Shown here: piece by piece, positions 808-47,297 of the stretch | How the letters are laid out: every line of letters begins with the position of its first letter | Numbering within the stretch: the first letter of the stretch is position 1 | From: a virus | Length of the DNA: 64,000 bases | Strand: one strand, 5' to 3' | IMG/VR virus record: IMGVR_UViG_3300038558_000079 | Coordinates: 1-64,000 of that record | Made by a program: the position numbers and the translations under genes | Notes under the pieces: model-generated | Database searches by the model: none | The model's input: only the letters and a program-made list of their open reading frames with translations | What the model was told of the DNA's origin: nothing

Positions 808-935
808 TGTCTTGACCTTAAGGTGATATCAATATTATAGCATTAATAATGAGTTAACTGTCACAAGGGTGCGATTTTGGTACTTGGCGAAACCTCTAAC
901 ATGTCGGAAGCTGTACCTGATACCCTGTATACTTC

Positions 936-994
936 CTAGCTTCCGACATGTTTACTTCTATTATAGATATTGAATACAACATGTCGGAAGCTAG
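936..994. repeat. Dispersed palindrome copy 1 (17-bp arms, 25-bp spacer), plus a solo half-site at 898-912
   Basis: ctagcttccgacatgtt-tacttctattatagatattgaatac-aacatgtcggaagctag. Confidence 0.97.
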
Positions 995-1195
995 AACACC
1001 AGCACCGTGCATCATCCAGCCAATGTTGAGAGGGGGGAATCCGGAATGGGCAACTGGCACACCTGGAACTAGTACTGCGAGCGGGGGAATGGCTCGAATA
1101 ATGACAATTACTAATATATTGATACGTATTCGCCTACTTGCGTAAAAAAAGAAGACATGTAATAATAGATATATAAAGTTAGTAGGTACAACCTT

Positions 1196-1372
1196 GTGGA
1201 ATACTTAGCAGATGTGAACAAACTAGGCCAAAAAACCGTTATTGTTGAGGCGACATCTGAAGACGAAGCGTTGGAAATATTAATTGAAGAATGGGGTGAG
1301 GACAACATTATAATTCCCCCTCATAAATCCGACTGCCAAGAGAGGATTGAAGCGGTAAGATCTGAGTATTAA
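1196..1372 (+). CDS. Small acidic hypothetical protein (58 aa)
   Basis: GTG-started open frame MEYLADVNKLGQKTVIVEATSEDEALEILIEEWGED...; below ORF-track cutoff. Confidence 0.55.
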   Translation: MEYLADVNKLGQKTVIVEATSEDEALEILIEEWGEDNIIIPPHKSDCQERIEAVRSEY

Positions 1373-1459
1373 TAGGTTGGTCTATCTCTGTGGAATACTG
1401 AAGACTTTTGTCAAAGGTAATGTTACCATAGAGATAGTAAAACAGTATCATCTAGGAAA

Positions 1460-1693
1460 ATGGAAGAAATTTTTAACGAATTAAACGACGCATTAGGTGG
1501 CACAGCGGTATACGAGAGAGCCTCATCTTCTAGTTGTGCCTTCTATTTTACCTACAGTGGTGAGCGATACACCCTAGCTATATTTGGTGATTTGGCGATA
1601 CTAACGAATATAACCAAACAGGATTACTGCAAGATTGCAACTAATAATTTAACTTCTGAAGTTGCAGAGGTGATAAAGAAATGGCAGGCTTAA
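1460..1693 (+). CDS. Hypothetical protein
   Basis: 77-aa ORF with AGGA RBS. Confidence 0.65.
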   Translation: MEEIFNELNDALGGTAVYERASSSSCAFYFTYSGERYTLAIFGDLAILTNITKQDYCKIATNNLTSEVAEVIKKWQA

Positions 1694-1751
1694 TAATACT
1701 ATTGCTTGTTTACTTGGTAAAGTTTATCATCCAAGATGTGAGGCGAAACGA

Positions 1752-2150
1752 GTGAGAATCTATCCTAGCATTGCGCCAAATTTCCTGAAAGGATTGAAAT
1801 TGCCATCCTACAATACAGAGATTAGTGAATTTCCGGATGGTGGTGAGAATCGGATACAACTTAGTAATATAGGTGTGGGGACTAAGTTGTCTCTAAGCTA
1901 TGAAGCGTTGACAGAGACTCAAGTAGCAAGCATCATGAATTTCTACGCTAGCTGTAAGGGTGAAGGGTACGCATTCCTGCTACCAACTACGGTAATGAAT
2001 CACCCAATCGCAATTAATACCGCGATCGCAGCACTGAAAGCTACAACCTGTTGGGTTTTTGATGGACAAGTACGAATAACCCCGCGATACAGTACATATC
2101 AGCGGGGTATATTCGATATCGAGGTAACACTAAGTTCAGTTGTTTCCTGA
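1752..2150 (+). CDS. Minor/distal tail protein (lambda gpM/Dit-like)
   Basis: F.DG.E.RI...L.L.Y..LT......IMNFY....GE...F..P pattern of gpM-like proteins; paralogous to the C-terminus of 5140-8247. Confidence 0.7.
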   Translation: MRIYPSIAPNFLKGLKLPSYNTEISEFPDGGENRIQLSNIGVGTKLSLSYEALTETQVASIMNFYASCKGEGYAFLLPTTVMNHPIAINTAIAALKATTCWVFDGQVRITPRYSTYQRGIFDIEVTLSSVVS

Positions 2151-3138: not shown

Positions 3139-3175
3139 CCAGAATAAGAGCCAGAAATACTCAATATCTTTTTAG

Positions 3176-3193
3176 ACACCTTCGGGTGTTTTT
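3176..3193 (+). terminator. Rho-independent terminator
   Basis: acacc-ttcg-ggtgt (cUUCGg loop) followed by T run. Confidence 0.7.
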
Positions 3194-3359
3194 ATTTGCC
3201 AAAAATCTTATTGATAACATACATTTTTCGGTGTACCTATTAGGAGATATGAATCTTTAGAGTGGTACTTTGCAATGTAAGGCACGCCATGCAGTAATCA
3301 ATGAATAACTTTACATTAAAACCGATAAAAATCCTCGAATCCCTCTCTATGTACACTTC

Positions 3360-3415
3360 CTAGCTTCCGACATGTTTACTCCTATATAGATATTGAAAAC
3401 AACATGTCGGAAGCT
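3360..3415. repeat. Dispersed palindrome copy 2
   Basis: ctagcttccgacatgtt-N24-aacatgtcggaagct. Confidence 0.97.
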
Positions 3416-3504
3416 GAGAGTTAATGCTAGTAAAGGGTGTAGCGTTTCTGAGAACCAAGTTTTGACACCCTTGAAAAACCCACTAAAATACCCTTTTACA
3501 TCCC

Positions 3505-3533
3505 TTGACAATATGAGAATCTTTAATTAATAT
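3505..3533 (+). promoter_or_regulatory. Cassette-associated sigma70 promoter
   Basis: TTGACA-17-TAATAT, about 90 bp after the palindrome. Confidence 0.7.
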
Positions 3534-3564
3534 GGATACAGTAAAACATAAAAAGAGTAACACT

Positions 3565-4038
3565 ATGGATTTACAAGCGTATCAAGATTTTCTAATTGAC
3601 TATTCTAATAACTTAAATACCGATATTCCTTTGCCTACAATAGCGAGATTAGGGTTGATGGCTAAATCGGGAAAAGTGATAGGGGCACTGATGGAGAACA
3701 AGGTAGATGCGATCGCGCTCAAAGATGATTTAGGAGATACCTTATCATATTTTCTGCTAGTCCTGAATCATCTAGAAATGCCTTTAATAGCAATCGGGGC
3801 TATAGGTGGTTGTCTTCAGGTTCCTTTAGCAGATAACTACTTGTTCTGTGCAAGGAACCTATACACATGCGTTGACAGTTTTCTCAGGCTTAAGCTTGCA
3901 CGCGAGTCACTCGAATTATTAATAGCCATTATACGAATAGGGTTACTCTATGACATTAAACTTGAGGATATTGTGTCTTATAGCTGGGACAAACTTAAGA
4001 AGCGGTTAGATGAGGGTGAATTGCAAGGATTTTGTTGA
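3565..4038 (+). CDS. MazG-like NTP pyrophosphohydrolase fold protein, degenerate
   Basis: MDLQAYQ..LGLMAKSGKV..LKDDLGDTLSY..LEDIV...DKLKKR resembles MazG-like LGL.GE.GE/ELGD motifs with E to K changes; start moved to 3565, downstream of the promoter. Confidence 0.6.
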   Translation: MDLQAYQDFLIDYSNNLNTDIPLPTIARLGLMAKSGKVIGALMENKVDAIALKDDLGDTLSYFLLVLNHLEMPLIAIGAIGGCLQVPLADNYLFCARNLYTCVDSFLRLKLARESLELLIAIIRIGLLYDIKLEDIVSYSWDKLKKRLDEGELQGFC

Positions 4039-4082: not shown

Positions 4083-4165
4083 GTAAATTCGTAACGCATA
4101 TCAAATCTATCGGCAATGTCAGTAAATGTATTATACTAAGAGAGTAAACACAAAGGAGAGACAAG

Positions 4166-4636
4166 ATGCTAGGTGCGTACCAAGATTTTCTAGTTGCTTA
4201 TTGCAACACCGAAGAGCGTATTAAAGTTACTGAGCCGTGGTCATTAAGGTTAAACTTACTAGCCGGAAGTCAGGATTTTATAGAGACTATAGGTGAAGAT
4301 GGTAGTCACAATGCTGCTGTGACAAAGTTTGAGGATATCCGGGAAATTTTAGGAGATGTGCTATCCTGCCTACTCCTCATCTTAGATGAACAAGGTACAA
4401 GGCTTGACATTGAACGGGTCATGGAACACATAGACACAACACCTACCCCCCAGCCGTGCAATAAAGCTTTAGTGCCCGCAGTGGGGAGATTCTTAGATTC
4501 TGGATGCACTCCAGAAAAAGCTTACGATGTGGTACATGCAGTACAACGTATAGCAATACACTACAACAGCAACTTAACAAAATTAGTGATCTGGCAATGG
4601 GATGCCTTCTTAAGGCACTGGATGGAAGAGTTATAG
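4166..4636 (+). CDS. MazG-like fold protein, degenerate paralog
   Basis: MLGAYQDFL...IREILGDVLSCLL; GGAG RBS leader identical to that of 2673. Confidence 0.6.
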   Translation: MLGAYQDFLVAYCNTEERIKVTEPWSLRLNLLAGSQDFIETIGEDGSHNAAVTKFEDIREILGDVLSCLLLILDEQGTRLDIERVMEHIDTTPTPQPCNKALVPAVGRFLDSGCTPEKAYDVVHAVQRIAIHYNSNLTKLVIWQWDAFLRHWMEEL

Positions 4637-4913
4637 AATTGCGCTAACTAACTATCTTCAATGCACCCTTAGTGACTCAAATATTAAGGGTGTCTTTTTG
4701 TGTCTATTACAGCAGTATTAGTGCATACCTGACAGGCTGATAAATTCTTAATCATATCGAGCTACGCATGGGAATTTAACTCTCGGTAGGTATTAGTAAA
4801 GTTGAGAAATGGCAGTGACACAGCGTAACGTACATCGACCCATACAGTAGTCAAATGAACAACTTTGCATTAAATCCGATAAAAATCCCCGAATCCCTCT
4901 CTCTATACACTTC

Positions 4914-4969
4914 CTAGCTTCCGACATGTTCTATCCTATATAGTAATTGAAAACAACATGTCGGAAGCT
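4914..4969. repeat. Dispersed palindrome copy 3 within a ~350-bp cassette (4790-5140)
   Basis: ctagcttccgacatgtt-N24-aacatgtcggaagct; upstream ~120 bp identical to 10878-10996. Confidence 0.97.
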
Positions 4970-5048
4970 GTGAGGTAATACCAGCAAGGTGTGTAGCGAT
5001 TCTGAGAACCAAATTTTGAAAACACCTAAAAATTCTCTCAGACACCAC

Positions 5049-5077
5049 TTGACACCTTAGAGGAATTGAATTAGTAT
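5049..5077 (+). promoter_or_regulatory. Cassette-associated sigma70 promoter driving a 13-aa stub
   Basis: TTGACA-17-TAGTAT followed by ATG 5109 MDLQAYQDFLANS*. Confidence 0.7.
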
Positions 5078-5139
5078 GGACACAGTAAAACATAAAAAGA
5101 GTAACACTATGGATTTACAAGCGTATCAAGATTTTTTAG

Positions 5140-8100
5140 CTAATTCATAACACTCACTATCTTCAAAGTAACCCCTAGCAATCCTCTCTGTCCTAAGAGG
5201 TAACTAGGGGTTACTTCTGGGTTTTCATTGAAACGCCAGTAAGTAGTACTGCCCTGGTTTGCGATCGCATTCAGTATACTACTGGGAAGCCTGAGTACGT
5301 TACTAGGAATTAAGAATGGTATCTGCGAACCTTGGCTCAACCGCCAGAAGTCAATTAGTACCTTAGCATCTACAGGGCTAAGGTTGGTATATTTCAGCGT
5401 CATTTCCATCTTCACACCCGTATCACTTCTCCGAATCTTCTGTAGGCTACCATCATCGAAGGATACCTTATCAAATTTATAGGGCGGTAAGGTGATATCC
5501 TCTATGAAATCGGGCACTAGTGAAGGGAAAATTCCGGCTTTAGCAAATGCGCTTGGTAGCGGATAATTAAGCCTATCCTTATAAAGTATCAATTCCGCTA
5601 AAGTACTAATAATTTCTAAGTGCCAAAAGCCAAAGTATTCACGGTAGGTAGTACCGCCAAAAGTGAATGTTGGCTGGAAAGCTGTGAAGGAACCAGCCAT
5701 TACTCCAGTGGGGACATATTCGGCTTGTAGGCTTGTGAAACATCGGGACATGATATCGAAGGTGATATCAGGAATTAACCCCGCTACATTGGCATATAAT
5801 GCGGTGCGGAGTAAGAGTGCTAATACGTGAGGTTCGTGATAGTTGGCTTGTGGTGAGATTACGGGGGGGATATCAGTTGGTGGTTGGTTTCCGCTAGCGA
5901 TTAGAAAATCCTGAATCCAAGAGAGATATCGGGTAAGTATTTTTCGTGCCAATACCGAGTTGGGAACTAGCATCAAGTATCGAGCGGTCGCTTCCATTGG
6001 GCGGGCACAATAGGGGAACCATGCGGTATTTGGATCTGCCCCTTTCCAAGACCATTCGTTCCCCTCACTACCGAATGTACGAAAGTCTGCGGTATCCCAA
6101 TATTTCCACAGAAATACCTGAATTAATGGTGCAAGTAGCCCTACATTACTTTGCTTCTGGTAGGCTAGCTGGGAATCATTCAGAAACTGTAGTGCTTGTA
6201 GTGCCCTCTCAGGGTATCCCCAGATCTGCCAATGATAGGGCGATTGATATCCAGCATAAGGAGCGCCTCCCCATGAATCCTTAATAAATCCACCATTCCC
6301 ATCAGCTAGCACATTAATCGTGAAGGGGATTACACCGGGATTGTACTTCAATTTATCATTGCTATTACCAATGGGATAGAAGTTGCCTATCCAGAGTATT
6401 TGCGCATCAGCTATCCGCGAACGCACTAGTGCTTTATAGCTAGTACTACCCTGTGCGGGATTCTGAGGTGCAGCACCTGCGTAGTAAAGCTTAATAACTC
6501 CCCTATCCTCACTCTCAAAAGCACACCCTAGAATAGTACCACTACTAGGGTTATCCTTACCATCAACGCTAGAAAAGTCACTCCAGCTAGGTGTAAATTC
6601 AGTCCAGTTATTATTCGTATTTGGCACTGAACATTTCCAGAAATCATCTTCAGAATCTCTCAATACCATAGTCCACTTCCCACTAGTAGCTACCTTAATG
6701 CTAGGGGGCGTGTTGGTAAAGTTTGTAACAGAAAATCCTGTGCCAATTACATCATCAGGATTCACTGTTACCACTTGTGCAATCGCTAACCGACCATCAA
6801 CTACCACTTGTTCGGTAATAATTGAAACATCTCCATCACCATAGGTATAAAGTGGTGTATCAGCATTCAGAGAGTGCCACACTGTACCACTTCCCCACTT
6901 CACAAAAGATGTATAACCACACGTAACATTCCGTGGCACAGCGTCACCTTGAACCAACCAATAAGCGGTATATTCTTGTGTGGTATCTAAGGTATTAGGC
7001 GATAGGGATAATACTATCTCCAGTATCTGTCTCTTATTACTAGCAGCTTCCAAGTACACCGATACAGTGCTTTGTATGTAAGTGGTGACTATATAGTTTT
7101 GAACTTCAAAGCTAGGGTAATTACTAGGTGGTGGTGTAGCTGCGGCAATATCTAATCGTAGGTAATATTGGAAAACACCCGCGCTATTTACCCTGCTAGC
7201 AGTATACCCATTAGAGTCTCTGTTAATTGGTATAGCTTGCGCTCCAGCTAAGATAAATGGGTTACCCTTTTCGCGATAATAGAAGTAGCTAGGGTTCTCA
7301 ACAACAGCACAATTAGCTAAGGTATCCCTGGTAGCATAAGCCGCTCTTACCCACTTAATATTACCAGTGTACGGGTACAACTCTATAAACCCATCATAGC
7401 CCCAATAGAGACTATCATTAGCACATCCTAAATAAGTATTTCCCCCCCTATTGGGATTATGCCACATAGGGTAAGGTTCAAGCATCCCGTAGGGTGGAAT
7501 ATTCCCAGCAATCCAGCTAGAAAAATAGACTTTAGCAGTACCTGTAAAATTACTATATGCCCCACTCAATACAATCGTACCTGGTGTTTCACTAGTAGGT
7601 GTTTTGCTGCCATCTGGATAGTTACGATAGTTTATTCCCTCTAACCGATAGTTGGAAACACTATACCCGATAGTGTATTCAATTCCTGACTTTAAAGGTG
7701 CGTAAATATTTTGATAGAGCAATTCACCATCACTAGATGTTACTTTGTAAAGATCTGCTAATAGTCCACCGGGTATTACTCCGATGCCATTTACAAAACT
7801 TAGGGAATAGTCAAAATTACCAAAGTTGAATGCCCTAGCGGTATCTTGTGAACCCTTACCAGGAACCGCGTAATTTGAAGCATTAACCGCCCAGTGTGCA
7901 ATCCAAACCGTAGTAGTTGGGTTACTGGTTACAGGTGGTGTAGGTGTAGGAAAGAAGTAAGTTAAATAACTTTCTGAGAACCCTACAGCCTTGCCTAACC
8001 ACTCAGTATCACCTGTAGCTTTATAGGCTCTAATACACCCCAGTATGGCTAAGGTTTGTCCTTCAGAAACACTGGCTTCAGCAGGTAAGTAACCACGCCT

Positions 8101-8247
8101 ACCTTCTACCGTGTGAAAGTTGTTTTTCAGTAAGAGGTTTGCTGTTGCTAGGTAGGGATAATTATTGCGAGTGAATCTACTCAGAAACACTTTAGACGCT
8201 AATAGCATCGACTGTACAGAAGCTATATTATAAGGAGGTGTAGGCAT
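5140..8247 (-). CDS. Tail-associated protein: glycoside-hydrolase-like (GH8/six-hairpin-like) region fused to a C-terminal gpM/Dit-like domain
   Basis: SEGQ motif (VSEGQTLAIL) and AYKATGDTEWL-type helical-barrel repeats; last ~125 aa align by eye to 1752-2150. Confidence 0.6.
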   Translation of the reverse strand: MPTPPYNIASVQSMLLASKVFLSRFTRNNYPYLATANLLLKNNFHTVEGRRGYLPAEASVSEGQTLAILGCIRAYKATGDTEWLGKAVGFSESYLTYFFPTPTPPVTSNPTTTVWIAHWAVNASNYAVPGKGSQDTARAFNFGNFDYSLSFVNGIGVIPGGLLADLYKVTSSDGELLYQNIYAPLKSGIEYTIGYSVSNYRLEGINYRNYPDGSKTPTSETPGTIVLSGAYSNFTGTAKVYFSSWIAGNIPPYGMLEPYPMWHNPNRGGNTYLGCANDSLYWGYDGFIELYPYTGNIKWVRAAYATRDTLANCAVVENPSYFYYREKGNPFILAGAQAIPINRDSNGYTASRVNSAGVFQYYLRLDIAAATPPPSNYPSFEVQNYIVTTYIQSTVSVYLEAASNKRQILEIVLSLSPNTLDTTQEYTAYWLVQGDAVPRNVTCGYTSFVKWGSGTVWHSLNADTPLYTYGDGDVSIITEQVVVDGRLAIAQVVTVNPDDVIGTGFSVTNFTNTPPSIKVATSGKWTMVLRDSEDDFWKCSVPNTNNNWTEFTPSWSDFSSVDGKDNPSSGTILGCAFESEDRGVIKLYYAGAAPQNPAQGSTSYKALVRSRIADAQILWIGNFYPIGNSNDKLKYNPGVIPFTINVLADGNGGFIKDSWGGAPYAGYQSPYHWQIWGYPERALQALQFLNDSQLAYQKQSNVGLLAPLIQVFLWKYWDTADFRTFGSEGNEWSWKGADPNTAWFPYCARPMEATARYLMLVPNSVLARKILTRYLSWIQDFLIASGNQPPTDIPPVISPQANYHEPHVLALLLRTALYANVAGLIPDITFDIMSRCFTSLQAEYVPTGVMAGSFTAFQPTFTFGGTTYREYFGFWHLEIISTLAELILYKDRLNYPLPSAFAKAGIFPSLVPDFIEDITLPPYKFDKVSFDDGSLQKIRRSDTGVKMEMTLKYTNLSPVDAKVLIDFWRLSQGSQIPFLIPSNVLRLPSSILNAIANQGSTTYWRFNENPEVTPSYLLGQRGLLGVTLKIVSVMN

Positions 8248-9358: not shown

Positions 9359-9413
9359 AGCTTCCGACATGTTGTATCCTATTATAGATAATGGAACCAA
9401 CATGTCGGAAGCT
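9359..9413. repeat. Dispersed palindrome copy 4
   Basis: agcttccgacatgtt-N25-aacatgtcggaagct, between gpL-like and gpK-like genes. Confidence 0.97.
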
Positions 9414-10756: not shown

Positions 10757-10999
10757 GTAAGAATTAAGCCCTGGATAATACTAGCTGTTATCCTTTGGTG
10801 TATGGTGCAACACTTTAGATGCAGAGTGAATAGCAAGAAAGTTATTTGACAGTGTGGGGTTTTTATGCCCGGTAAATATTAGTAAAGTTGAGAAATGGCA
10901 GTGACACAGCGTAACGTACATCGACCCATACAGTAGTCAAATGAACAACTTTGCATTAAATCCGATAAAAATCCCCGAATCCCTCTCTCTATACACCTT

Positions 11000-11057
11000 C
11001 TGGCTTCCGACATGTTCTATCCTATATAGTAATTGAAAACAACATGTCGGAAGCCAG
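11000..11057. repeat. Dispersed palindrome copy 5
   Basis: ctggcttccgacatgtt-N24-aacatgtcggaagccag; both arms carry complementary changes. Confidence 0.97.
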
Positions 11058-11144
11058 GAGTTAATGCAGGCAAAGGATGTAGCGTTTTCGAGAACCAAGT
11101 TTTAACAACCTCAAAAACACCGCTAAAATACCCTTTTACACCCC

Positions 11145-11173
11145 TTGACATCTTAGAGGAATTGAATTAGTAT
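11145..11173 (+). promoter_or_regulatory. Cassette-associated sigma70 promoter upstream of omegaRNA
   Basis: TTGACA-17-TAGTAT. Confidence 0.75.
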
Positions 11174-11179
11174 GGATAC

Positions 11180-11440
11180 AGTAAAACAAAAGAAAGCAAA
11201 GTCAACAACCCCGGTCTAAAGACACGGGGCTTCCAGCCTAAAAAACTGAAGCCCGGAAGTTGACCAGCCTCAGTCGCAAGACTACGTTATCGGTAAGCGT
11301 TAAAGTTCATACCAGGAAATGCGAAGCTAGTTTCCTGCTCTAGAACCGAAAAGTTAAACAGGCGTAACGGGTTAAGTCAGTGCTTTTTGGATAGTACCGA
11401 CCGATAACATTGGCGAAGCTAACTTTACTCCGAAAGGAGA
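11180..11440 (+). ncRNA. HEARO / IscB omegaRNA with a 5' guide derived from flanking DNA
   Basis: gtcaacaacccc..ggggctt..gttgaccagcctcagt..gactacgttat..atacc.ggaaatgcgaagctagtttcc.gctcta..gttaaaca..cagtgc..ataacattggcgaagctaactttac matches the HEARO consensus order; ends approximate. Confidence 0.85.
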
Positions 11441-12457: not shown

Positions 12458-12514
12458 CTTCTAACTACATGCGTATACTTATATTATAAGTCCGAAGCAG
12501 GAGGTGTCAATAAG

Positions 12515-35081: not shown

Positions 35082-38000
35082 ATGTCTAACAATAACAACG
35101 ATTGTCATAGCATCACTTCTCCTAATTTGATGAGCCAAGTTATGAGAACTAGTAATCGGAGCTACAGTCGAAAAACTACAGGTTTTGTAGGACTACATGC
35201 TCATTCCTACTTTAGTTTGCTCGATGCCTTTCGGAGTCCTACAGAGTTGGTAAAATGTGTTGCGGAATTGGGACAACCCGCGATCGCACTTACAGACCAC
35301 GGGGGGCTTTGGGGAACTGTTGAGTTAATGATAGCTTGCGAGAAGTATGGGATTACACCCATAGCAGGAAATGAGATGTACCTTAAAGATGACGCTGCTA
35401 CTCAACGTCTTAAAGAGTACGTGGGGGATGGCGATTACAAAGTTAAATCTCGATATCACCAATCGGTATTGGCGGTGTCACGAACAGGGTATGAAAATCT
35501 TTGTAAGCTCACCAGTGATTCATACCTAAAGACTTCAGAAAAAGTTAAAGGTAAGGTGTACCCCCTGGTAACCAAGGAAGACTTAGCAAGGCATAAAGAA
35601 GGATTAGTACTTACATCGGGGTGTTTAGCTGGTTTAGTATGTCAGGGTGTCTTGAGTGGTGATTTAGAATTTGCCAAGGATACTGCTAAGTGGTACAAAG
35701 ACACCTTTGGGGATAACTATTATATAGAACTTCAAGACCACGGGATAGAGGACGACCAACGTAAGGTAAACCTACATCTAGTTGCGATCGCTGAAGAATT
35801 AGAGATAGGGCTAGTTGTTACCGCAGATAGTCATTATGTGTACCCGTCACAAAAGGTGTCTCACAAGCATTTCCTCAGAATCAATAAGGGTGAAAAATTC
35901 TCTAATGTATACAAAGGAGATTTCTGGCATCCATCCGAATCAGAGATGGATTCACGTCTGGTGTATCTCCCCGATTGGGCAAGGGAACAGGCAATGGACA
36001 ACACTGTCTTAATTGCCCAGAAAGTACAACCGTACACACTAGCAAGTAAACCTGCTTCACCTAAGTTTACTCTACCTATGGGAACGACACCCGATGAGTA
36101 TTTAGAGCAACTTTGTCTGAAAGGATTAGAGCGGATTGGAGAGAGTGCTAACCCCATATACATTGAGCGATTGTACTATGAATTGGGGATACTTAAACTT
36201 AAGGGACTAGCAGATTACTTTCTGATAGTCCAGGACTATGTGAACTGGGCAAAGGCTCAGAAGATACCAGTTGGAGTAGGACGCGGTTCAGGTGGCGGTG
36301 CATTGGCGTGTTACGTCCTGAATATTACTACCATTGACCCCATTAAGCACGGGTTGATATTTGAGAGATTTATTAATCCAGAACGCGAATCATATCCAGA
36401 TATCGATGTTGACTTCTGTATGGAGCGCCGACATGAAGTAGTAGCCTACCTACAGGATAAGTATGGGGTCGGTAATGTTGCTAATATTATTACCTTCAAT
36501 AAGATGGAATCAAGATCAGCTCTTAAGGATGCTGGTTGGGTGTTAGGTGTGGACTTCACGGTACAAAACATATTCTCTAAGTCACTACCTGTAATCCGTG
36601 GGAAAAATATTAAGCTAAAAAATATCATTGAAGATCCAACATTAGCACCTGAGTTTATGGCACACTACGAAGCTAATGCAGTGGTACATTGCAATGTTAC
36701 TTTTCGAGAATGGGTAGATTTAGCAGTTGCCTTAGAAGGTACAGTAAAATCTACCGGGATTCATGCCTCTGGACTAATAATAGGAGATGAATCCTTAAGT
36801 AGTATTATCCCCTTACAGTGTACCCCTGATGGGACAATAACTTCTCAGTACAACATGAATGAAGTCGAATATATGGGTATCTTAAAAATGGATATTCTAG
36901 GGTTAAAAACTTTAACCATTCTCGACAAAGCCATGAAGTATATTGGCGGTGACTATTACGACCTAGAGAAGATAGACATTAACGATAGTAATGCTCTAAA
37001 CCTTCTAGCAACTACATCACCTGTGGGTATCTTTCAATTAGAAGCCGCTGAGAAAATGATCCATTTAGTCAAGCCGACTACATTCGAGGAGGTCGCTGAT
37101 GTCACGTCTTTGATACGTCCAGGGTGTTTTGATATGAGTATGCACAATGAATATACAGCAGTCAAATTCGGGCATTCTGAACCTACATATTGTACAGAAA
37201 AACTAAGGGGTATCTTAGGTTCTACTCACTCACAGTGTCTCTATCAAGAACAGCTACTTAGGATATGCACCGAGATTGCAGGATTCTCACTCGGATATGC
37301 CGATAATGTACGGCGGGGATGTGGTAAGAAAAAGAAGGAAGTGTTAGAACCTCTTAAGGAGTCCTTTGTTAAAGGGTGCTTAGGTAATGGGGAGTCTCAG
37401 GAAGTCGCTGATGAACTATGGGAAATCATCTTAGCAAGTGCTGGTTACTCATTTAATGCCAGTCACAGCAAGGCATATACAATAATCTCCATGTATACTG
37501 CATGGGTGCGTTACTACTACCCGGCACAATTCTTTGCAGCGCTACTTTCAGGGCAGAAAGACGTTGAGAAATTTGCTGAATATAGTACGGCTTTAAAACT
37601 CCACAATTTGAAATTGATACCGCCCGATATCAACACTAGCGATAGTGACTTTTTACCCATTAATGATGGTGTGTTGTTTGGGTTGGCTTATATCAATGGG
37701 TTAGGAGAAAAGACATTAGGGGATGTCTTCTCAGAACGCGCTAAAGGTAAATTCTTATCTCCGATTGACTTCTTTAGCAGGGTAAAAGTGTCCCAAGCAA
37801 CAGCACAAAAGTTAATTAAGGCTGGAGCCTTTGATAGCTTGGAATCTAATCGAGGCAAACTTTTGGAGAATTTACCAGATATCTTTAATTGGCTATCAAC
37901 ACATCGCAAGTTTGCACAAAAGGAACAGACTACTCTGGCTATACCAGGAATAGATTGGGGGAACTACCTGGTAGTACCTACACTTAAAGATTCCCCACAA

Positions 38001-38366
38001 TTATCTCTTAGACAACGGCTTGAGAATGAGAAGGACTTACTAGGAATAGCTCTAACAGGGCATATCCTGGATGAGTATAAGTTAGACGCTGTGGTTTTGA
38101 AGAATTTAGAAGTGGGGCAAGTATTAGAGGGTGTAATTGTAATTTCTGAAATGAGAAGTTATACCCAGAAAAATGGCGGTATTATGGGGTTTGTGACCTT
38201 AGAGGATATCTTGGGTAATAAGCTAAAGTGTACCGTATTCAGTAGTGCATGGTCTATCTCAAAAAGTTATATCCAAGTAAATACCCCATTGTATGTCAAT
38301 GTGAAAATTGGTACATACAATGGGGAAATTAATGGGATTGTTAACCGAATTAAGAGACTAAATTAA
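35082..38366 (+). CDS. dnaE: DNA polymerase III alpha subunit, unsplit
   Basis: PHP HAHSYFSLLD/ALTDHG, GRGSGGG, PDIDVDF, KMDILGL, YQEQ, GYSFNASH, C-terminal OB fold; start may be a later Met. Confidence 0.96.
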   Translation: MSNNNNDCHSITSPNLMSQVMRTSNRSYSRKTTGFVGLHAHSYFSLLDAFRSPTELVKCVAELGQPAIALTDHGGLWGTVELMIACEKYGITPIAGNEMYLKDDAATQRLKEYVGDGDYKVKSRYHQSVLAVSRTGYENLCKLTSDSYLKTSEKVKGKVYPLVTKEDLARHKEGLVLTSGCLAGLVCQGVLSGDLEFAKDTAKWYKDTFGDNYYIELQDHGIEDDQRKVNLHLVAIAEELEIGLVVTADSHYVYPSQKVSHKHFLRINKGEKFSNVYKGDFWHPSESEMDSRLVYLPDWAREQAMDNTVLIAQKVQPYTLASKPASPKFTLPMGTTPDEYLEQLCLKGLERIGESANPIYIERLYYELGILKLKGLADYFLIVQDYVNWAKAQKIPVGVGRGSGGGALACYVLNITTIDPIKHGLIFERFINPERESYPDIDVDFCMERRHEVVAYLQDKYGVGNVANIITFNKMESRSALKDAGWVLGVDFTVQNIFSKSLPVIRGKNIKLKNIIEDPTLAPEFMAHYEANAVVHCNVTFREWVDLAVALEGTVKSTGIHASGLIIGDESLSSIIPLQCTPDGTITSQYNMNEVEYMGILKMDILGLKTLTILDKAMKYIGGDYYDLEKIDINDSNALNLLATTSPVGIFQLEAAEKMIHLVKPTTFEEVADVTSLIRPGCFDMSMHNEYTAVKFGHSEPTYCTEKLRGILGSTHSQCLYQEQLLRICTEIAGFSLGYADNVRRGCGKKKKEVLEPLKESFVKGCLGNGESQEVADELWEIILASAGYSFNASHSKAYTIISMYTAWVRYYYPAQFFAALLSGQKDVEKFAEYSTALKLHNLKLIPPDINTSDSDFLPINDGVLFGLAYINGLGEKTLGDVFSERAKGKFLSPIDFFSRVKVSQATAQKLIKAGAFDSLESNRGKLLENLPDIFNWLSTHRKFAQKEQTTLAIPGIDWGNYLVVPTLKDSPQLSLRQRLENEKDLLGIALTGHILDEYKLDAVVLKNLEVGQVLEGVIVISEMRSYTQKNGGIMGFVTLEDILGNKLKCTVFSSAWSISKSYIQVNTPLYVNVKIGTYNGEINGIVNRIKRLN

Positions 38367-41300
38367 GCACTTATCAGTTTCACAAGCAACTAGTACATTA
38401 GGTAAATCAACGGTGTCATACTTCAGGAGCGCATCTTCAAAATTCTTAATAGAACGCCGCCGTCTCACACCATCTACGAGAGTGTTGTAAACCTCTTCAG
38501 AGATAGGTTCAAATGGCATCCTAGGGAAAGTTTGTTTACTCTCAAACCGCGCTAGTAGCGCTGCTGAGATATATCCTTCGTCATCTTGAATTGCTTGATA
38601 GATGGCATTTCCCAAAGGCTCTATCTCAGCTTCTGTGAATTCCAGAGTGCTACTCGTATTGTGCCCCACATAATGTTTCTGGACTTGCATCATGAAGTCG
38701 AATTGTGCCAATGCTGAAAAATTCCCTACATCTATATCTGCAACACCCACTAAAGTAGACCATGGTGCAGCTACAGGAATCTCTACCAACCATTCAGTAC
38801 ATCTGGGGTCATAAGGATCATCCAGTAGGTTCCCAGATTCATCACGGCTAGATTGTGAGGGGATGACAGTATACCCGTAATCGATACAAGCCAGAGCGAC
38901 CGGATTGTCTCTGGCAAAGGTAATCCGACGTATGTACCAGGTTCCCTTTGGAGGATGCCACCCTGGTGAGCTATTTGATAGTAGCGATTGTGTTCCGCTA
39001 GGTTTTACGGTAGTACACCGATTAGGAGTTTTGAGATTATGACGTTTGCAGTAATCTGCCACGTCATTCTCTACAAACTTTTTCCATTTCTTGAGACACC
39101 GTACCTCTACATCATGAAAGGTGTCACTCAAATATACACCCGTCTCAGTTTCACCCCATTTACTAGCACGTCCTGCTTCCCACCAGCGAAGCCAATCAAC
39201 ACCGAAAAGTTTCACAAAGAAATCAAAAACCCCAGTCATTCCCACCCCTACAATGGGGTCAAGTTCTCTGGATTCTCTCAACTTCTCATCAACAAATTCG
39301 TGGTGTAGTAATGAACATGCCCATAAGCTTGCTGCTTTAAAAGCACTTTTTTGTTCCTCAATATCAAAGGGGTCTATCTGCGACAGGTGGACTTCTGACA
39401 AGTTGCACAAGTTGTCTTGTAGGATTATCTCACCACATGGATTCAGGCCATAGATATTCATCCGATAATCAATATCATCATCGCTAGAAGCAAAACTTCT
39501 CAGATACTCTTTAGCATCAGTAGGATTGGAGTTATAAAGTCTCAAGAATTCTACCTTCTTTTCACTAGTATCCAGTAAATCTACATTGCTACGTGCGATC
39601 GCCTCTGGAGCATACTGTATTGCACCTTCGCCTGAATAATATTGGCTTCTCACAGCTTCAATACACTCAGCTTGTGTAGGTTTCTTATGAAATACCCTAG
39701 TGTGATTTGCCATTCTCAGGGCATCTTTATCGGGGTCAATTGTCCAATTGCCATCTGAATCTACTTTCCAAAGATTTTCCTTAATCTTGTAGGAATCGGG
39801 GTCATTATCTGAAAATTGGCGCATTCCGGCACTATTAGATACCAACAATCCTTCACACACAAATTCGTGTATGCTGGCAACTTCAATATCGAAAGTATGC
39901 GCTGTTCTTACTTCGTGTTCTATGGATTTAACCTTAACAGGCACTAAATCGGTTGTAGTTGGAACTAGTCTTTTTAATGTTGTGACAATGACCTGTTCTT
40001 GATGACCACCATACCTGTAGCGATAACTACTTACCGTGGGTTTTACCATCTCAACCGGGAACCCGTGGTCTTTAAAAGACTTAGGGGTTTCTTTTTTATG
40101 GCTTAAATAATGTAAGGAATGCGTTGTTAAGAATGCAGAAGTTGCTTCAAAGGCATTTTGCCCAACAGTTACCAATTCCCCTTCCCATTTGTTAGTGCGT
40201 TTCCTTAATGAGGAACACAAACGTGTAGTAATTGCTAGGGATGAATAAAGAGCTTGTACCTGTCTGAGAAAATCTTTATGTGTTGATGTTACTAAAACAC
40301 CTTGCGAGTGACACCCATCGGCATCGGCTAACCCAGCTAAATATGCTTCGCGAATTTCCTTAACTCCCATCAAAATACAATCGGGTATTGACATTGAAGT
40401 AAAAGGACGCTTGAAGTTGCTAAAATACTCGTTAAAGGATTTACTGTTGAACTGTAGCTCAAACGCTTTACTTTTGCGTTGTTCGGGTGTTGCAAGAGAG
40501 TAGTCATTAATCCCAAATTCACATGCCACGCTGATTAGTTGCTCAAGAATTTGTGGGTGTTGTTCAGGAATACTAAATCTGACATTTGTACCATCCGAGC
40601 CAACACATCCATTCCCATGTAAGTAGCCTAAGAAATACGCTACTTTGTTAGTTAACGCTGGTATGGTGACGGTTTTTTTGTTTCTGGTTGATTGATTTTT
40701 GAATTCTGGTAATTCAGTGGGGATACCCGGTATAGACTGAGGGACAAAAACCAAACGATCTCCTGGTTTTAAATCTTTAGCTTTTACCATTTTATACCCA
40801 CCATAAAAATCACTTAATACTGCGATTTTATGTTCTGAAGTACATTCCAAAAACCCGTCTTCTGTTTTAATTCGAGACAACGTTTGCACACCTTGATCGA
40901 AAAAGTTAGTAACTGGGTAAAAACCCTTACTCGTTAATACGCGGTCTCCAATTCGGATTTTTTGGATTGGTACTAATCCTAATTGTGTATGAACCAATGA
41001 CTCACCAGGTAAACAGCGACGCACGTTACCCGATACTATTACTAATGATGGCTCATCAATTAACAGACAACACTCAGCACTGTTCAGCTTACGTCCTACA
41101 GCACCATTGAGAATTTTTACAATACGCGGGTATAGCTGAGGTAGTAATGTCGGATTAGCAATTCCACCGAACCCCTTTAACTTTTCACCTTGTTGTCGTA
41201 TCCCGCTAATGTCTATCTCTACCTCTATATCACCATCACCAGCTAGCAGGTTATCAGTTGCTAATTGGAGAAGGCTTAGATAGCTATCACACCAACCTTC

Positions 41301-41807
41301 ACGAGAATCACCAACTAGAAATAGGTACTTCCTGTCACCTACTACTTTTACAAAAGTCCTTTCAGTTCTAGCTTTAGAACTGCCAAACTCCCCTGTGACT
41401 TTCACATTAATAGTGTTGAGAACCGGCGGTAACTTCTCTATATATCGAGGTTCAATAACAGCGCCAGTACCACACCCTTGCATGGTAAGATTCATCATTA
41501 ACTCGAAAGCTTTTAGGGTATCTAGGTTAGATGATGAGCAATTATAAGCGCCATAGAAGTTTTTTGGAACCTTTACCCAGTCAGTTCCTCCTACCCAGAG
41601 CCAACGACCCGATGGTAAACTCTTAAGAGCTAGTGCGTTACTGTAAAGGAGGTGCTTTTCGTCATCAGTTAACTTGCCTAATTCGGCAATTCCGTGAGTG
41701 ATTCTCTCACAGGTATCTTGCCAATTTTCGCGGGTGTTATCTGGTTTAAGTCTTGAATAGGTACGCGAGAAGACCGGAGCCGCGCATGGTGCATTATTGG
41801 GAAACAT
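38358..41807 (-). CDS. nrdJ: Class II (B12-dependent) ribonucleotide reductase with intein
   Basis: PSGRWLW.GG, YNC, GNVRR|SAG, NPCGEI, TTVKPSGT, C-terminal CETDKC. Confidence 0.95.
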   Translation of the reverse strand: MFPNNAPCAAPVFSRTYSRLKPDNTRENWQDTCERITHGIAELGKLTDDEKHLLYSNALALKSLPSGRWLWVGGTDWVKVPKNFYGAYNCSSSNLDTLKAFELMMNLTMQGCGTGAVIEPRYIEKLPPVLNTINVKVTGEFGSSKARTERTFVKVVGDRKYLFLVGDSREGWCDSYLSLLQLATDNLLAGDGDIEVEIDISGIRQQGEKLKGFGGIANPTLLPQLYPRIVKILNGAVGRKLNSAECCLLIDEPSLVIVSGNVRRCLPGESLVHTQLGLVPIQKIRIGDRVLTSKGFYPVTNFFDQGVQTLSRIKTEDGFLECTSEHKIAVLSDFYGGYKMVKAKDLKPGDRLVFVPQSIPGIPTELPEFKNQSTRNKKTVTIPALTNKVAYFLGYLHGNGCVGSDGTNVRFSIPEQHPQILEQLISVACEFGINDYSLATPEQRKSKAFELQFNSKSFNEYFSNFKRPFTSMSIPDCILMGVKEIREAYLAGLADADGCHSQGVLVTSTHKDFLRQVQALYSSLAITTRLCSSLRKRTNKWEGELVTVGQNAFEATSAFLTTHSLHYLSHKKETPKSFKDHGFPVEMVKPTVSSYRYRYGGHQEQVIVTTLKRLVPTTTDLVPVKVKSIEHEVRTAHTFDIEVASIHEFVCEGLLVSNSAGMRQFSDNDPDSYKIKENLWKVDSDGNWTIDPDKDALRMANHTRVFHKKPTQAECIEAVRSQYYSGEGAIQYAPEAIARSNVDLLDTSEKKVEFLRLYNSNPTDAKEYLRSFASSDDDIDYRMNIYGLNPCGEIILQDNLCNLSEVHLSQIDPFDIEEQKSAFKAASLWACSLLHHEFVDEKLRESRELDPIVGVGMTGVFDFFVKLFGVDWLRWWEAGRASKWGETETGVYLSDTFHDVEVRCLKKWKKFVENDVADYCKRHNLKTPNRCTTVKPSGTQSLLSNSSPGWHPPKGTWYIRRITFARDNPVALACIDYGYTVIPSQSSRDESGNLLDDPYDPRCTEWLVEIPVAAPWSTLVGVADIDVGNFSALAQFDFMMQVQKHYVGHNTSSTLEFTEAEIEPLGNAIYQAIQDDEGYISAALLARFESKQTFPRMPFEPISEEVYNTLVDGVRRRRSIKNFEDALLKYDTVDLPNVLVACETDKCLI
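39834..41015 (-). mobile_element. Intein with LAGLIDADG homing endonuclease (394 aa)
   Basis: NVRR|CLPGESLV...FLGYLHGNG...YLAGLADADG...TFDIEV...HEFVCEGLLVSN|SAG. Confidence 0.93.
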
Positions 41808-43886: not shown

Positions 43887-43897
43887 AGGTTAAAATC

Positions 43898-44401: not shown

Positions 44402-44832
44402 GCTAATTTAGCAACTACTCTAATACCGTAAAAATCATAGCCGGTACTGGCGGCATTTTTTGAACTCGTACTTACTGTGAGGGTGTGGAGTTTGTTATTT
44501 GTCACGGTGTAATTAAAAGTTTGACTTGCGGTAACGATTGTAGTAGCCGAATATGTGTCGAGTGTTGCCACTATGTCCGCGTTTATTCGTATAGTAGCAA
44601 TTCCAGCATTCGCAGCCGTACATATAAAAAATGTAAAGGTATAAATGCCGGGTGTGAGATAAAAGGTACAAAAAGCTTCTGTGGTTATAGACGAAGGTAA
44701 TAGTCGAGCATAACGATTAAAATTAGCATTGCCATTTCTAGTTACTGAAAAACTACCTGTTGACTTTGCGGTGAAATCCTCATAGTAGCGTTCAAAAACA
44801 TTACAAACTGGATAGGTTCTTAAAACTCCCAT
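44398..44832 (-). CDS. Carbohydrate-binding-like beta-sandwich protein
   Basis: GIATIRIN...TLDTYS...HTLTV....KNAASTGY. Confidence 0.6.
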   Translation of the reverse strand: MGVLRTYPVCNVFERYYEDFTAKSTGSFSVTRNGNANFNRYARLLPSSITTEAFCTFYLTPGIYTFTFFICTAANAGIATIRINADIVATLDTYSATTIVTASQTFNYTVTNNKLHTLTVSTSSKNAASTGYDFYGIRVVAKLA

Positions 44833-44841
44833 TACGTCTCC

Positions 44842-46560
44842 TTAAATTAAATACCAGAGTACATACCCAGCAACATCTGCTGTAAGCGATAAATTCATCA
44901 CAAAAGCTGTGTTAGTAGCTAGAACTAGTGGGTGAGTATAGTCCGCTGCATGTTCATTTATAGCCATTGCACCTGTTATAGCTGTAGTGTCACTTTTGAG
45001 GGTAACAGCACCGTTTGAAAGTGTGAAATATAGCCCTGTAATTGCAATTTTCTGACTTGCAACAGCACCGAGAACCGTAACATCACCGACACCTGCTGTG
45101 ATACTGATAGCAGTAACAATAGGGATTCTATCTATCTTTTCTGCTATATACCGTAATTGCTGTGTGGTTGTTCCATTGGGGTTAGCAGCAGCACCTACAG
45201 TGCCAATCTTATCTTGAATAACTTGAAGTTGAGCTATAGAGTCTACATCAACTACTTTTAAGTTTTCATTGGCATCTAATAGTAAAGGCTTAAGCACTCC
45301 TGATTTACTACCAAGTACTACATTGCCTGTAGGGGTACTATTCGTAGTCTCGAAAGCGTACTGGACATTAGTTAGATTAGGCGTAGCGACCTGTAAGTAG
45401 TTGTTCGTGTCTAACTGCAAAGCCTTAGCTACACCTGATTTATTAGCTAGTGCTACAGTACCAGTAGGTGTTGCACTGGTTGTACCATCGGCATACTGGA
45501 CATTAGTTAGATTAGGTGTAGCGACCTGTAAGTAGTTATTAGTGTCTAACTGTAAAGCCTTAAGCACACCTGATTTATTAGCTAATACCACACTACCTGT
45601 AGGTGTGGCGCTGGTTGTGTTATCAACATACTGTGTGTTAGTAAGGTTAGGTGTAGTAACCTGTAAGTAATTATTAGCGTCTAACTGTAAAGCCTTAGTC
45701 ACGCCAGATTTATTAGCTAGTGCTACAGTGCCAGTAGGTGTTGCGCTAGTCGTACCATCGGCATACTGGATTCCACCACCGCCGCCTCCTCCACTGACTA
45801 CATTTACCGATATAGGAGATGAAGCTGTAATCGGAATTGCACTTTGCGCCGATATCTGCAATGCACCCGCATTATCTAACTTGAGTGCAGTTAGTGTCCC
45901 ATCGCTTTCTTTCGCTAATAGTACAGCACCCGATAGTGTTGCTGGGGAACTACCCTCTAGGTATTCTGTTGGTGCTGGATTATTCCCCGCCGCGATCGCA
46001 ATCTTTAAATAACCACTTGAATCAATCTCTACAGGAAAAATTTCCCCTGTACTTCGTCTTCCCAAGAATAGATTGCCTCGTGGTGTTGCAGGATTACTAC
46101 CACTATCATACTGAGTGCCTCCACCACTATTCTCACCAATAAATCGTAGTTGCTGTGAGATAGTGCCAGAAGTGGACGCGGTGTTACTTCCATCAAATAA
46201 TAACTTTATGAGTAGTCTGATTAATCCACTCATCCCCGACACGCTATTATGGTCTGTTGCGGGTGCATCGGTTGTGCCCCCAATGCGTGTCTCTAAGCTA
46301 GTCTGTGTCGCTGTCAGGGTAGATTCTGTAGCACCACCTGTTGGTTGATTGGCTACGAATATTTCCCCACTACCATTGATCTTTATCTTATTCCCTGGTG
46401 TAGTGGGGTCTTGAACTGTTACGGAATTCGCGCTGCTACCCGTATCAACAGGTAGTCTATTCTCTGATGTCCAGACCGCAGCCAAAGATGCCGCGATCTG
46501 CTTTGCTAATGCTTTAATTGCCACAAGGTTTTTCCATGTACTTTGTGGTAATTGTAGCAT
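44842..46560 (-). CDS. Tail fiber-like protein with internal repeats
   Basis: 572 aa with QY..G...TP.G repeats. Confidence 0.65.
   Translation of the reverse strand: MLQLPQSTWKNLVAIKALAKQIAASLAAVWTSENRLPVDTGSSANSVTVQDPTTPGNKIKINGSGEIFVANQPTGGATESTLTATQTSLETRIGGTTDAPATDHNSVSGMSGLIRLLIKLLFDGSNTASTSGTISQQLRFIGENSGGGTQYDSGSNPATPRGNLFLGRRSTGEIFPVEIDSSGYLKIAIAAGNNPAPTEYLEGSSPATLSGAVLLAKESDGTLTALKLDNAGALQISAQSAIPITASSPISVNVVSGGGGGGGIQYADGTTSATPTGTVALANKSGVTKALQLDANNYLQVTTPNLTNTQYVDNTTSATPTGSVVLANKSGVLKALQLDTNNYLQVATPNLTNVQYADGTTSATPTGTVALANKSGVAKALQLDTNNYLQVATPNLTNVQYAFETTNSTPTGNVVLGSKSGVLKPLLLDANENLKVVDVDSIAQLQVIQDKIGTVGAAANPNGTTTQQLRYIAEKIDRIPIVTAISITAGVGDVTVLGAVASQKIAITGLYFTLSNGAVTLKSDTTAITGAMAINEHAADYTHPLVLATNTAFVMNLSLTADVAGYVLWYLI
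45230..45770 (-). repeat. Tandem 135-bp (45-aa) coding repeats, about 4 units
   Basis: QYADGTTSATPTGTVALANKSGVxKALQLDxNNYLQVxTPNLTNx recurring at 135-bp spacing. Confidence 0.9.
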
Positions 46561-46561
46561 G

Positions 46562-47101
46562 TTACGCTGACCGCTGTAAGAGCAAACGGTGTTCCTCTTT
46601 CTCGACTAAACAGCGTAACGCGCCCTGGTCTAATTCCCATACCTTTAACTCTACGGGGTAGCCAGTTCGTTTGCCGGGACGGGCAACACTATACTTACAC
46701 AGTCCTCGTTGGTGCAGGTAGTTTTGAAGTGTTTCAGCTTCCTTCTGAGTTGAGAATCCGAGATTCACCGTCCATGGTGTGGAGTGTTCTGTGGGGAGTA
46801 GCGCAGTAATTCTCGAATTTGGAGTTAGAGCCTTGTCAACCCATTTGAATGACTTAGGAGCATAACGCTTGTGGATTAAGTGTGTCCAAATAATGTTAAG
46901 TAATTCTTGTTTCCGAAAAGCCGATACAGCTTTTCCTAGAGTGGCTTTGCAGAATAACCACCCTTTCGCCTCTTTATTTAGCTTGTCAATCACCGCTCGT
47001 AATTCGCGGATTGTATAGGTTGACAATTCCTGTAAGTCAATCCGTGCCAAGTTTACTTTTTTTACTTTGTCTGCTGCCTTGTAGAATAGTGAAGTAGTCA
47101 T
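46562..47101 (-). CDS. Hypothetical basic protein under cassette promoter
   Basis: 179 aa; TTGACA-17-TATTAT at 47162-47134. Confidence 0.7.
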   Translation of the reverse strand: MTTSLFYKAADKVKKVNLARIDLQELSTYTIRELRAVIDKLNKEAKGWLFCKATLGKAVSAFRKQELLNIIWTHLIHKRYAPKSFKWVDKALTPNSRITALLPTEHSTPWTVNLGFSTQKEAETLQNYLHQRGLCKYSVARPGKRTGYPVELKVWELDQGALRCLVEKEEHRLLLQRSA

Positions 47102-47240
47102 GGTCTTATGTCTCTTTTTGCTTTACTGTGTCCATAATAATTCAAATCTTCTAAGGTGTCAAGTGGTGTCTGAAAGAATTTTTAGGTGATTTCAAAACTT
47201 GGTTCTCAGAATCGCTACATACCTTACTGGTATTAACTCT

Positions 47241-47297
47241 CAGCTTCCGACATGTTGTTTTCAATTACTATATAGGATAGAACATGTCGGAAGCCAG
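47241..47297. repeat. Dispersed palindrome copy 10, in an inverted cassette (~47100-47430)
   Basis: Spacer is the exact reverse complement of the spacers of copies 3 and 5. Confidence 0.97.

Follow-up and report, generated by a model that had tools for sequence, protein, structure and literature searches.

In enterobacteria, repetitive extragenic palindromes (REP), BIME elements and the REPINs that go with RAYT transposases are extragenic palindromic units of alternating orientation, joined by conserved linkers into mosaics. Hairpin loops may also undergo minute inversions, of which chloroplast cases are known. The available portions of two reports describe template-switch mutations and such inversions at short inverted repeats (PMC8604942, PMC8794818). 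Among phages, two systems come closest to the one presented here. The passages available on the PeSLs of T4-type phages describe cassettes of a sigma-70 promoter and a stem-loop that mediate modular shuffling (PMC2839356, Arbiol et al. 2010; PMC4122927, Comeau et al. 2014), and those on the Cluster O mycobacteriophages describe a 17-bp inverted repeat, mostly at gene boundaries and present genome-wide in dozens of copies (PMC4351075). The element examined here is a palindrome of two 14-nt arms that recurs in the IMG/VR virus record IMGVR_UViG_3300038558_000079 (90,554 bp), of which the first 64,000 nucleotides are referred to as the window. By analogy with the PeSLs, and with about an even chance of being right, the palindrome may be the core of intergenic regulatory boundary cassettes in a cyanophage lineage.

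The core unit spans ~52 bp and consists of a 14-nt arm, an AT-rich spacer of 24 or 25 nt and the inverted arm. The exact pattern (14-nt arm, N20-30, reverse-complement arm) has eight matches in the window and none in 100 dinucleotide-preserving shuffles. When up to three mismatches are allowed, 24 single arms are found against 4.0 ± 2.1 expected. Ten paired copies and a solo arm at 898-911 account for 21 of them, and the remaining three (536, 30544 and 39391) are stray matches with three mismatches. The ten-copy palindrome and solo half-site of the preliminary description are therefore real, as eight exact copies, two imperfect ones (17257-17308 and 19957-20009) and the solo arm. The coordinates given there precede the arm starts by 1-3 nt, flanking bases having been included, and one (34849) is off by 9 nt. 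The whole record holds 16 paired copies, 12 exact and four imperfect, with six of them past the window (66231, 71234, 75523, 79205, 83638 and 85192). It also contains four extra third arms (898-911 in the window, three beyond it) and a diverged pair at 89371/89411, whose arms depart from the canonical sequence, yet are exact complements of each other. Every one of the 36 arms with at most one mismatch in the record lies inside such an element, none being isolated. Many near-invariant copies of one short site are also a trait of genome-wide phage operators, such as stoperator-like sites or the Cluster O repeats. No long sequence other than these palindromes recurs identically across the genome, and public contigs assembled from aquatic and wetland runs break at them, as they do at repeats.

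The spacer length of 24 or 25 nt, previously described as fixed, holds in all ten window copies. The TATAG-type central motif described with it is present in most of them, the copy at 34858 deviating. The spacer is asymmetric, its small central dyad being off-centre, so that each copy has an orientation. Outside the arms lies a box of about 25-31 nt with a sequence related to the spacer, and beyond the box a perfect third arm in four copies and an apparent degenerate arm in others. The full element is thus an imperfect palindrome of ~110-135 bp in which arms and boxes alternate, with up to four arms. Copies 3363, 4917, 11003 and 47243 sit within repeated cassettes of 310-420 bp that share a common left flank and have a right flank ending in one or two sigma-70-like promoters. 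The palindrome was rejected as coding sequence: the open reading frames (ORFs) that overlap it lie in frames that differ from copy to copy, and are therefore not genes.

All 16 copies lie between long ORFs and occupy intergenic positions at transcription-unit boundaries. Five or six are located between divergent starts, six between a gene 3' end and the next start, and two between convergent ends. A gene start is found 49-172 bp outward from an arm in 12 of the 16, the exonuclease gene of copy 1 having been added to this count by hand. Copies are concentrated in the ORFan-rich and replication regions (eight in the first 20 kb, six in the last 25 kb), and the 13-kb structural operon has none inside. 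Outward-facing matches to at least 10 of the 12 sigma-70 consensus positions, which are consensus matches only, accompany 10/16 copies and 11/32 flanks, at 8-104 bp from the arm. The TTGACA box reported near seven window copies is confirmed, facing outward within that same range. As far as the available passages on PeSLs go, the likeness extends to repeated intergenic cassettes with a sigma-70-type promoter, putative in the present element, and a potential stem-loop, to their concentration in plastic regions rich in ORFans and beside a few replication genes, and to insertions, deletions and replacements of relatives that end in the cassettes.

A scan of metagenome contigs returned 42 loci, of which 29, drawn from several assemblies, belong to related phages and share 70-96% identity with the record. 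All of these pieces but one (28/29) carry copies, and the mapping proposed in the preliminary description thus yields 16 copies in the record and 42 more in related contigs. Parts of the stretch are also contained in public aquatic and wetland metagenome runs. Among the relatives' 42 copies, 29 have no mismatch in the 28 arm positions and 13 have one to four, while spacers and flanks vary freely around nearly invariant arms. Each locus was retrieved through one exact 11+11 match, so arm conservation is somewhat overstated; the copies found secondarily within the loci give the same picture. Arm changes concentrate in the outer 5 nt. About 12 elements have changes in a single arm, against two or three with symmetric double changes (L040 2839, L038 1500 and the 89371/89411 pair). 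Structure alone would tolerate far more compensated variants, which suggests that the arm sequence itself is recognised. The other 13 of the 42 loci were rejected as relatives: they are mostly low-GC contigs with few long ORFs, and the palindromes of the low-GC contigs share only the inner 11 nt of the arm. Since a palindrome needs a single 11-mer match and a multi-copy family multiplies coincidence, these loci were treated as unrelated, and the low-GC palindromes are probably an unrelated foldback element of another organism. To note, perfect palindromes of ~100 bp or more are seen at L026, L030, L032, L037, L039, L047, L050, L052, L058 and L062.

This pattern of change bears on the possibility that the palindrome acts as RNA, the transcribed hairpin being a bidirectional terminator, an attenuator, an RNA-processing site or a 3'-end stabiliser, as proposed for the stem-loop of PeSLs. 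Stable hairpins are predicted on both strands (-23 to -61 kcal/mol for ~142 nt), copies with a third arm could form alternative hairpins, the six copies between a 3' end and the next start are suitably placed, and the symmetric double changes listed above are those expected of a conserved stem. Template switching likewise yields symmetric changes, however, and the near-invariance of the arm sequence, with its excess of single-arm changes, is not what a purely structural role predicts. The loop of 24-25 nt without a T-run is ill suited to termination, hairpin-plus-T-run sites of their own are already present at upstream genes (3174-3191 and 4663-4693), and no transcript should need stopping at the five or six copies between divergent starts. 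A role as RNA hairpin is hence unlikely, though it keeps a real share of the probability.

The palindromes are also places of recombination, as the preliminary description had supposed. When 700 bp on each side of the relatives' 42 copies were mapped onto the record, both flanks were mappable for 33 copies and nine were left unresolved. Twenty-five of the 33 are colinear with one copy, and eight join the flanks of two different copies. Five of these eight are robust module junctions in which homology switches 0-30 bp from the arms: L027 at 924 and 6258, L038 at 1500, L028 at 3207 and L040 at 7847, where the join is inverted. Three contigs of one assembly, L040, L064 and L027, imply that the modules bounded by copies 71234, 75523 and 85192 would have changed order, one of them being inverted, on the assumption that these contigs represent one genome. 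L038 and L059 likewise have their cassettes in a different order. In 18/33 rearrangement junctions, at least one side lies no more than 200 bp from a copy, where 24% were expected (binomial p = 1.4e-4); many other junctions are insertions of insertion sequences (IS) or of HEARO.

These exchanges can be explained by general mechanisms. The palindromic copies would be homologous to each other in both orientations and, being dispersed, identical and palindromic, would act as crossover points for homologous recombination. The virus encodes an exonuclease and a Holliday-junction resolvase, through which such crossovers may have swapped, inverted and deleted promoter-plus-gene modules among relatives. 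Since identical dispersed repeats, these two enzymes and template switching account for shuffling and flipping, the unknown phage recombination system once proposed for the palindrome is not required. The observation that no cognate recombinase is visible in the window extends to the whole 90.5-kb record, whose six frames gave no match to tyrosine (PF00589) or serine (PF00239) recombinases, with positive controls.

That result weighs against a different proposal, in which an unrecognised phage recombinase or nuclease binds the arms in an integron- or shufflon-like manner without a classical integrase. Crossovers within ~30 bp of the arms at a shared homology of only 52-80 bp, the strict conservation of arm sequence and spacer length, and the many neighbouring genes of no known function would suit it. 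Set against these, breakpoints are also found elsewhere in the cassettes, and a 25-bp segment is, on steric grounds, implausibly short to be inverted through synapsis of the arms that enclose it. A homology of 50 bp is enough for phage recombination systems, and a 24-25-bp spacer is not known to fit the core type of either tyrosine or serine recombinases. Such a site-specific system is very unlikely. Slightly better placed, if still improbable, is a version in which the arms are recognition sites of a phage protein that binds the dyad, in folded or duplex form, and may also nick or cut it, leading to integrase-free exchange of promoter-plus-gene cassettes between co-infecting phages with the sites also flipping. 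The near-invariant arms, the fixed 24-25-bp spacing and the 50-80-bp crossovers would then be requirements of the enzyme instead of by-products of homology.

The inversion predicted by the preliminary description takes place within the elements themselves. Segments of 24-27 bp between arms are found flipped in place between close relatives. Spacer orientation differs among colinear orthologues at seven (939, 9360, 34858, 71234, 75523, 79205 and 85192) of the ten sites with at least one mapped orthologue, the unflipped ones being 83638, 47243 and 66231. The boxes between an arm and a third arm behave likewise: that of 75523 is, but for 1 nt, the reverse complement of its counterpart in a relative with 95% identical flanks, and that of 939 is also inverted in place. 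According to the portion available of PMC8604942, template switching between short inverted repeats inverts the spacer and homogenises the arms. The close inverted arms may thus provoke template switching, which would flip the 24-27-bp segments and keep paired arms identical. The likeness to minute inversions, as far as these reports could be consulted, lies in segments of tens of bp between perfect inverted repeats that flip recurrently between close relatives while the arms stay identical; the difference is that those inversions are a mutational process, whereas the element considered here is a selectively maintained multi-copy one.

Spacers flip without change in the flanking genes; their orientation is therefore not tied to the neighbours, which makes a directional role, for instance that of a fixed internal promoter, less likely. 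A role of this kind would make the palindrome a pair of face-to-face promoters, with CCGACA of the arm as -35 and a spacer -10 located 16-17 bp downstream, read by a host sigma or a phage-specific factor; spacer orientation would set the stronger direction and spacer length would keep the spacing. A -10-like motif does occupy a fixed place in almost all spacers, CCGACA-16-TATAAT is called in 939, 9360 and 16609 (10/12) and CCGACA-17-GATAAT in 9360, and at this last copy the gene located 49 bp downstream lacks any other promoter. In contrast, clear phage promoters use a perfect TTGACA, and the direction of the better -10 fits a gene start in just 9/15 informative copies, divergent sites matching trivially. 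Nor does the supposed sigma-like protein help: a sigma-factor identity of the 20075 product, suggested by the preliminary description, was rejected, as there is no sigma architecture and only a weak, sub-threshold match to an N-terminal helix-turn-helix. Together with the flips, this leaves little probability for internal promoters.

A mobile or host origin of the palindrome has even less in its favour. A selfish miniature element (MITE, REPIN or PATE type) spread by the Y1 transposases of the phage seems highly improbable, despite the long imperfect palindrome in many intergenic copies, the two IS200-type Y1 transposase genes and four tnpB genes in the record, and the presence of one IS between copies 17257 and 19957. 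This IS605-type element (~17369-19360) is inserted in the cassette of copy 7 and possesses subterminal hairpins of its own (~17478-17502 and ~19335-19357), which differ from the palindrome in sequence and by their short loop. Relative L028 lacks 17369-19360 yet keeps both neighbouring palindromes, so the palindrome is not an IS end. None of 25 colinear orthologous sites is empty, and target-site duplications could not be defined. Across the genomes of 185,579 species, only 11 single matches were found, in 11 unrelated non-cyanobacterial taxa and at about chance level, and a host REP or MITE was rejected on this ground; the search for a host element with target-site duplications, with which the preliminary description would have been refuted, was thus negative. 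A REPIN/RAYT system was also rejected, both Y1 genes being paired with tnpB in IS elements. As outlined above, REP, BIME and REPINs share with the present element alternating palindromic units and a small set of linker motifs in mosaic combination; they differ in that the element resides in a virus, with no RAYT, two Y1 genes in ordinary IS605-type elements and no host-chromosome copies.

Searches of reference collections were likewise negative. The 321-bp cassette has no match among INPHARED phages; the exact pattern has none in IMG/VR, and the relaxed pattern only one unrelated, high-GC single match. A resemblance to CRISPR leaders, also raised in the preliminary description, was not borne out: at the gathering threshold, the Rfam search of the window matched only HEARO RNA, outside the copies, at E up to 1 the only matches, from two cassettes, were sub-threshold ones to microRNA hairpins, and self-comparison revealed no repeat array. 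No published description of the palindrome was found in the literature searched, which yielded the PeSLs, the Cluster O repeats and work on template switching, nor are such repeats mentioned in the passages found of the paper on phage CL131.

The preferred reading, that of PeSL-like boundary cassettes, assumes that the two 14-bp arms form a dyad recognised in a sequence-specific manner, most likely the site of a phage or host DNA-binding protein. This dyad would lie 8-104 bp upstream of outward sigma-70-type promoters and mark nearly every transcription-unit transition in the early, replication and accessory regions. Candidate binders are the XRE protein encoded at 33569-33796 and the protein with an N-terminal helix-turn-helix (20075-20782); the KilA-N/ORF6N-like protein at 15509-16315 is a lead only. 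A suspected DNA-binding regulator is one point shared with Cluster O phages, as described in the passages available, beside an inverted repeat that is invariant except for its variable centre and recurs throughout the phage genome, mostly at gene boundaries, and an orientation of the asymmetric centre that is unrelated to transcription direction. The Cluster O repeat is a compact dimer site of 7+3+7 bp, whereas here 14-bp arms lie 24-25 bp apart, embedded in mosaic cassettes that are documented as recombination junctions. The PeSLs, in turn, belong to T4-type phages and not to a distant siphovirus-like cyanophage lineage, and their stem-loops are, in the passages at hand, variable and G/C-rich, in contrast to one nearly invariant 14-bp arm with a 24-25-nt spacer. 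Up to four alternating arms and the in-place flips between arms further set the present element apart. Another trait of PeSLs is the appearance, in the course of infection, of circular DNAs made of an ORF and a cassette.

Several observations weigh against this reading. The stem-loop lies upstream of the promoter (8-104 bp), while in PeSLs it is, from the available descriptions, within or beside it. At the threshold applied, six of the 16 copies lack an outward-facing promoter match, and the distance from arm to -35 is variable (8, 47, 57, 57, 57, 68, 80, 80, 90, 90 and 104 bp), which is unusual for a classical activator site. Terminator-like sites were called at no copy, the palindrome having a 24-25-nt loop and no T-run. 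Arm invariance could partly reflect gene conversion among copies, in addition to search bias. With regard to recombination, three of the eight cases that join different flanks are artefacts, due in one case to an absent IS and in the other two to paralogous cassette flanks. Junctions within 60 bp of a copy (4/33, p = 0.23) are not significantly enriched, so that the enrichment seen within 200 bp holds for the cassettes, and the case for the palindrome proper rests on the five robust junctions.

The individual copies illustrate the conserved and variable parts of these cassettes. The third, outer arm of copy 1 (898-911) matches exactly on the minus strand and lies beyond the left arm at a distance of 27 bp, giving the layout arm'-box-arm-core-arm'. 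Copy 1 itself (939-991) has exact arms and a 25-nt spacer, and is located upstream of the exonuclease gene (minus strand, 1-807), 131 bp from its start. The full cassette of copy 2 (3287-3594, plus strand, its extent taken from self-comparison) is formed by the conserved left flank, the palindrome (3363-3414) and two tandem sigma-70-like promoters facing gene 3532-4038, whose -35 boxes follow the arm at 47 and 90 bp; the terminator-like hairpin at 3174-3191 lies upstream of it. A second repeat, 67 bp long and with a TTGACA promoter, occurs at 2634-2700 and 4127-4193. It forms the opposite boundary of a gene cassette, and relative L038 has this cassette in swapped order. The full cassette of copy 3 (4720-5138, plus strand; palindrome 4917-4968) has a promoter with its -35 at +80 that is directed at the tail gene 5140-8247 from the 3' side of that gene. 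After this orphan promoter, relatives L046 and L051 possess ~375-381 extra bp, which explains one of the copies between convergent ends. Copy 4 (9360-9412) consists of the palindrome alone and is flanked, at 48 and 49 bp, by two genes of the same direction. Its spacer orientation varies among four orthologous copies, and the reversed flanks once attributed to it were not confirmed as stated.

The full cassette of copy 5 (10858-11194, plus strand; palindrome 11003-11054) has promoters at +47 and +90. The complementary change reported for its two arms exists, but it affects the three bases on the outer side of each arm. The promoter of this cassette is directly followed by a HEARO RNA (IscB-type guide RNA family RF02033, 157 bits) at 11201-11428 on the plus strand, with no iscB gene nearby. 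Since L027 and run X4 join 11200 to 11571, the HEARO is a 370-bp insertion. One public RNA run covers the HEARO region only, with 10 differences in 160 nt, and its reads are probably another organism's RNA. The cassette of copy 6 (16592-16764, plus strand; palindrome 16609-16661) exhibits a type-A right flank. That of copy 7 (17157-17364; palindrome 17257-17308, one arm mismatch) has its right flank broken at ~17369 by the IS605-type element ending at ~19360, and its promoter part resumes at 19435-19463. This promoter is followed by ~330 nt (19470-19800) that are densely paired, contain no credible ORF and have no Rfam match at the gathering threshold. Copy 8 (19957-20009), with a degenerate right arm (three mismatches), lies 8 bp upstream of the consensus TTGACA-18-TATAAT promoter of gene 20075-20782, the product of which is the weakly matched helix-turn-helix protein mentioned above. 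Copy 9 (34819-34944; palindrome 34858-34909) does have the same flank type on both sides, as originally noticed, with a stem of ~23 bp, and separates the divergent genes 34286-34741 (minus strand) and DNA polymerase III alpha (35082-38366, plus strand). Finally, the full cassette of copy 10 (47111-47490, minus strand; palindrome 47243-47294) is inverted relative to those of copies 2, 3 and 5, and its promoter faces gene 46562-47101 on the minus strand. Directly after cassette 10, a single ORF of 4517 codons extends over 47432-60985 (minus strand).

The record encodes a portal, a large terminase, tail proteins, a DnaE-type polymerase, an intein-bearing ribonucleotide reductase, helicases and a cytosine methylase, besides the exonuclease and the Holliday-junction resolvase. 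The ribonucleotide reductase gene (38358-41807, minus strand) is split by an intein with a LAGLIDADG homing-endonuclease domain. The portals of cultured phages are only 24-28% identical to that of the record, the closest being S-CBS4 and Aphanizomenon phage CL131 at just 27-28%, and a portal protein search of IMG/VR gave no close relative. The record is thus regarded as a distant, siphovirus-like and uncultured cyanophage lineage. The HIP1 octamer GCGATCGC occurs 26 times in the whole record, and restriction-type palindromes are strongly avoided there, with at least 12 hexamers at 0 against 5-13 expected, including CTGCAG, CCCGGG, GTGCAC, TTCGAA and GCATGC. Together with the HEARO RNA and the IS200/IS605 load, the HIP1 count and the absent hexamers point to a cyanobacterium as the host. 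A restriction-site link of the ACATGT contained in the arms was rejected, as this hexamer occurs 10 times outside the arms against 11.6 predicted by a Markov model. Window positions 1-141 and record positions 90414-90554 overlap with 134/141 identities, and contigs L027, L057 and L067 of relatives cross the junction, so the record, though classed as linear and 71% complete, is probably a complete, circularly permuted genome.

The IS200/IS605 load is heavy, with four tnpB and two Y1 tnpA genes in 90 kb, in units at 17369-19360 and 12206-13846 of the window and at 81592-82794 and 86933-88630 of the record. The 1.64-kb tnpB unit (12206-13846) sits elsewhere in relative L059, and the units 17369-19360 and 81556-82914 are missing from relatives. 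A 39-bp sequence is present three times (record 78713-78751, 81556-81594 and 88593-88631); two copies end tnpB units, and it may be a transposon end or part of a guide RNA.

If the palindromes are indeed the core of PeSL-like cassettes, mobile regulatory cassettes as joints of mosaicism would extend from T4-type myoviruses to an unrelated, uncultured cyanophage lineage. With one invariant arm sequence, every joint is findable by pattern search, and the lineage offers, in freshwater and wetland metagenomes, a natural series of rearranged genomes for dating and counting the exchanges of modules. The flips between arms would represent a rare viral example of template-switch inversion. In cyanophages, where regulation is almost unknown, the 16 sites would, if a binding protein exists, define a compact early-gene regulon.

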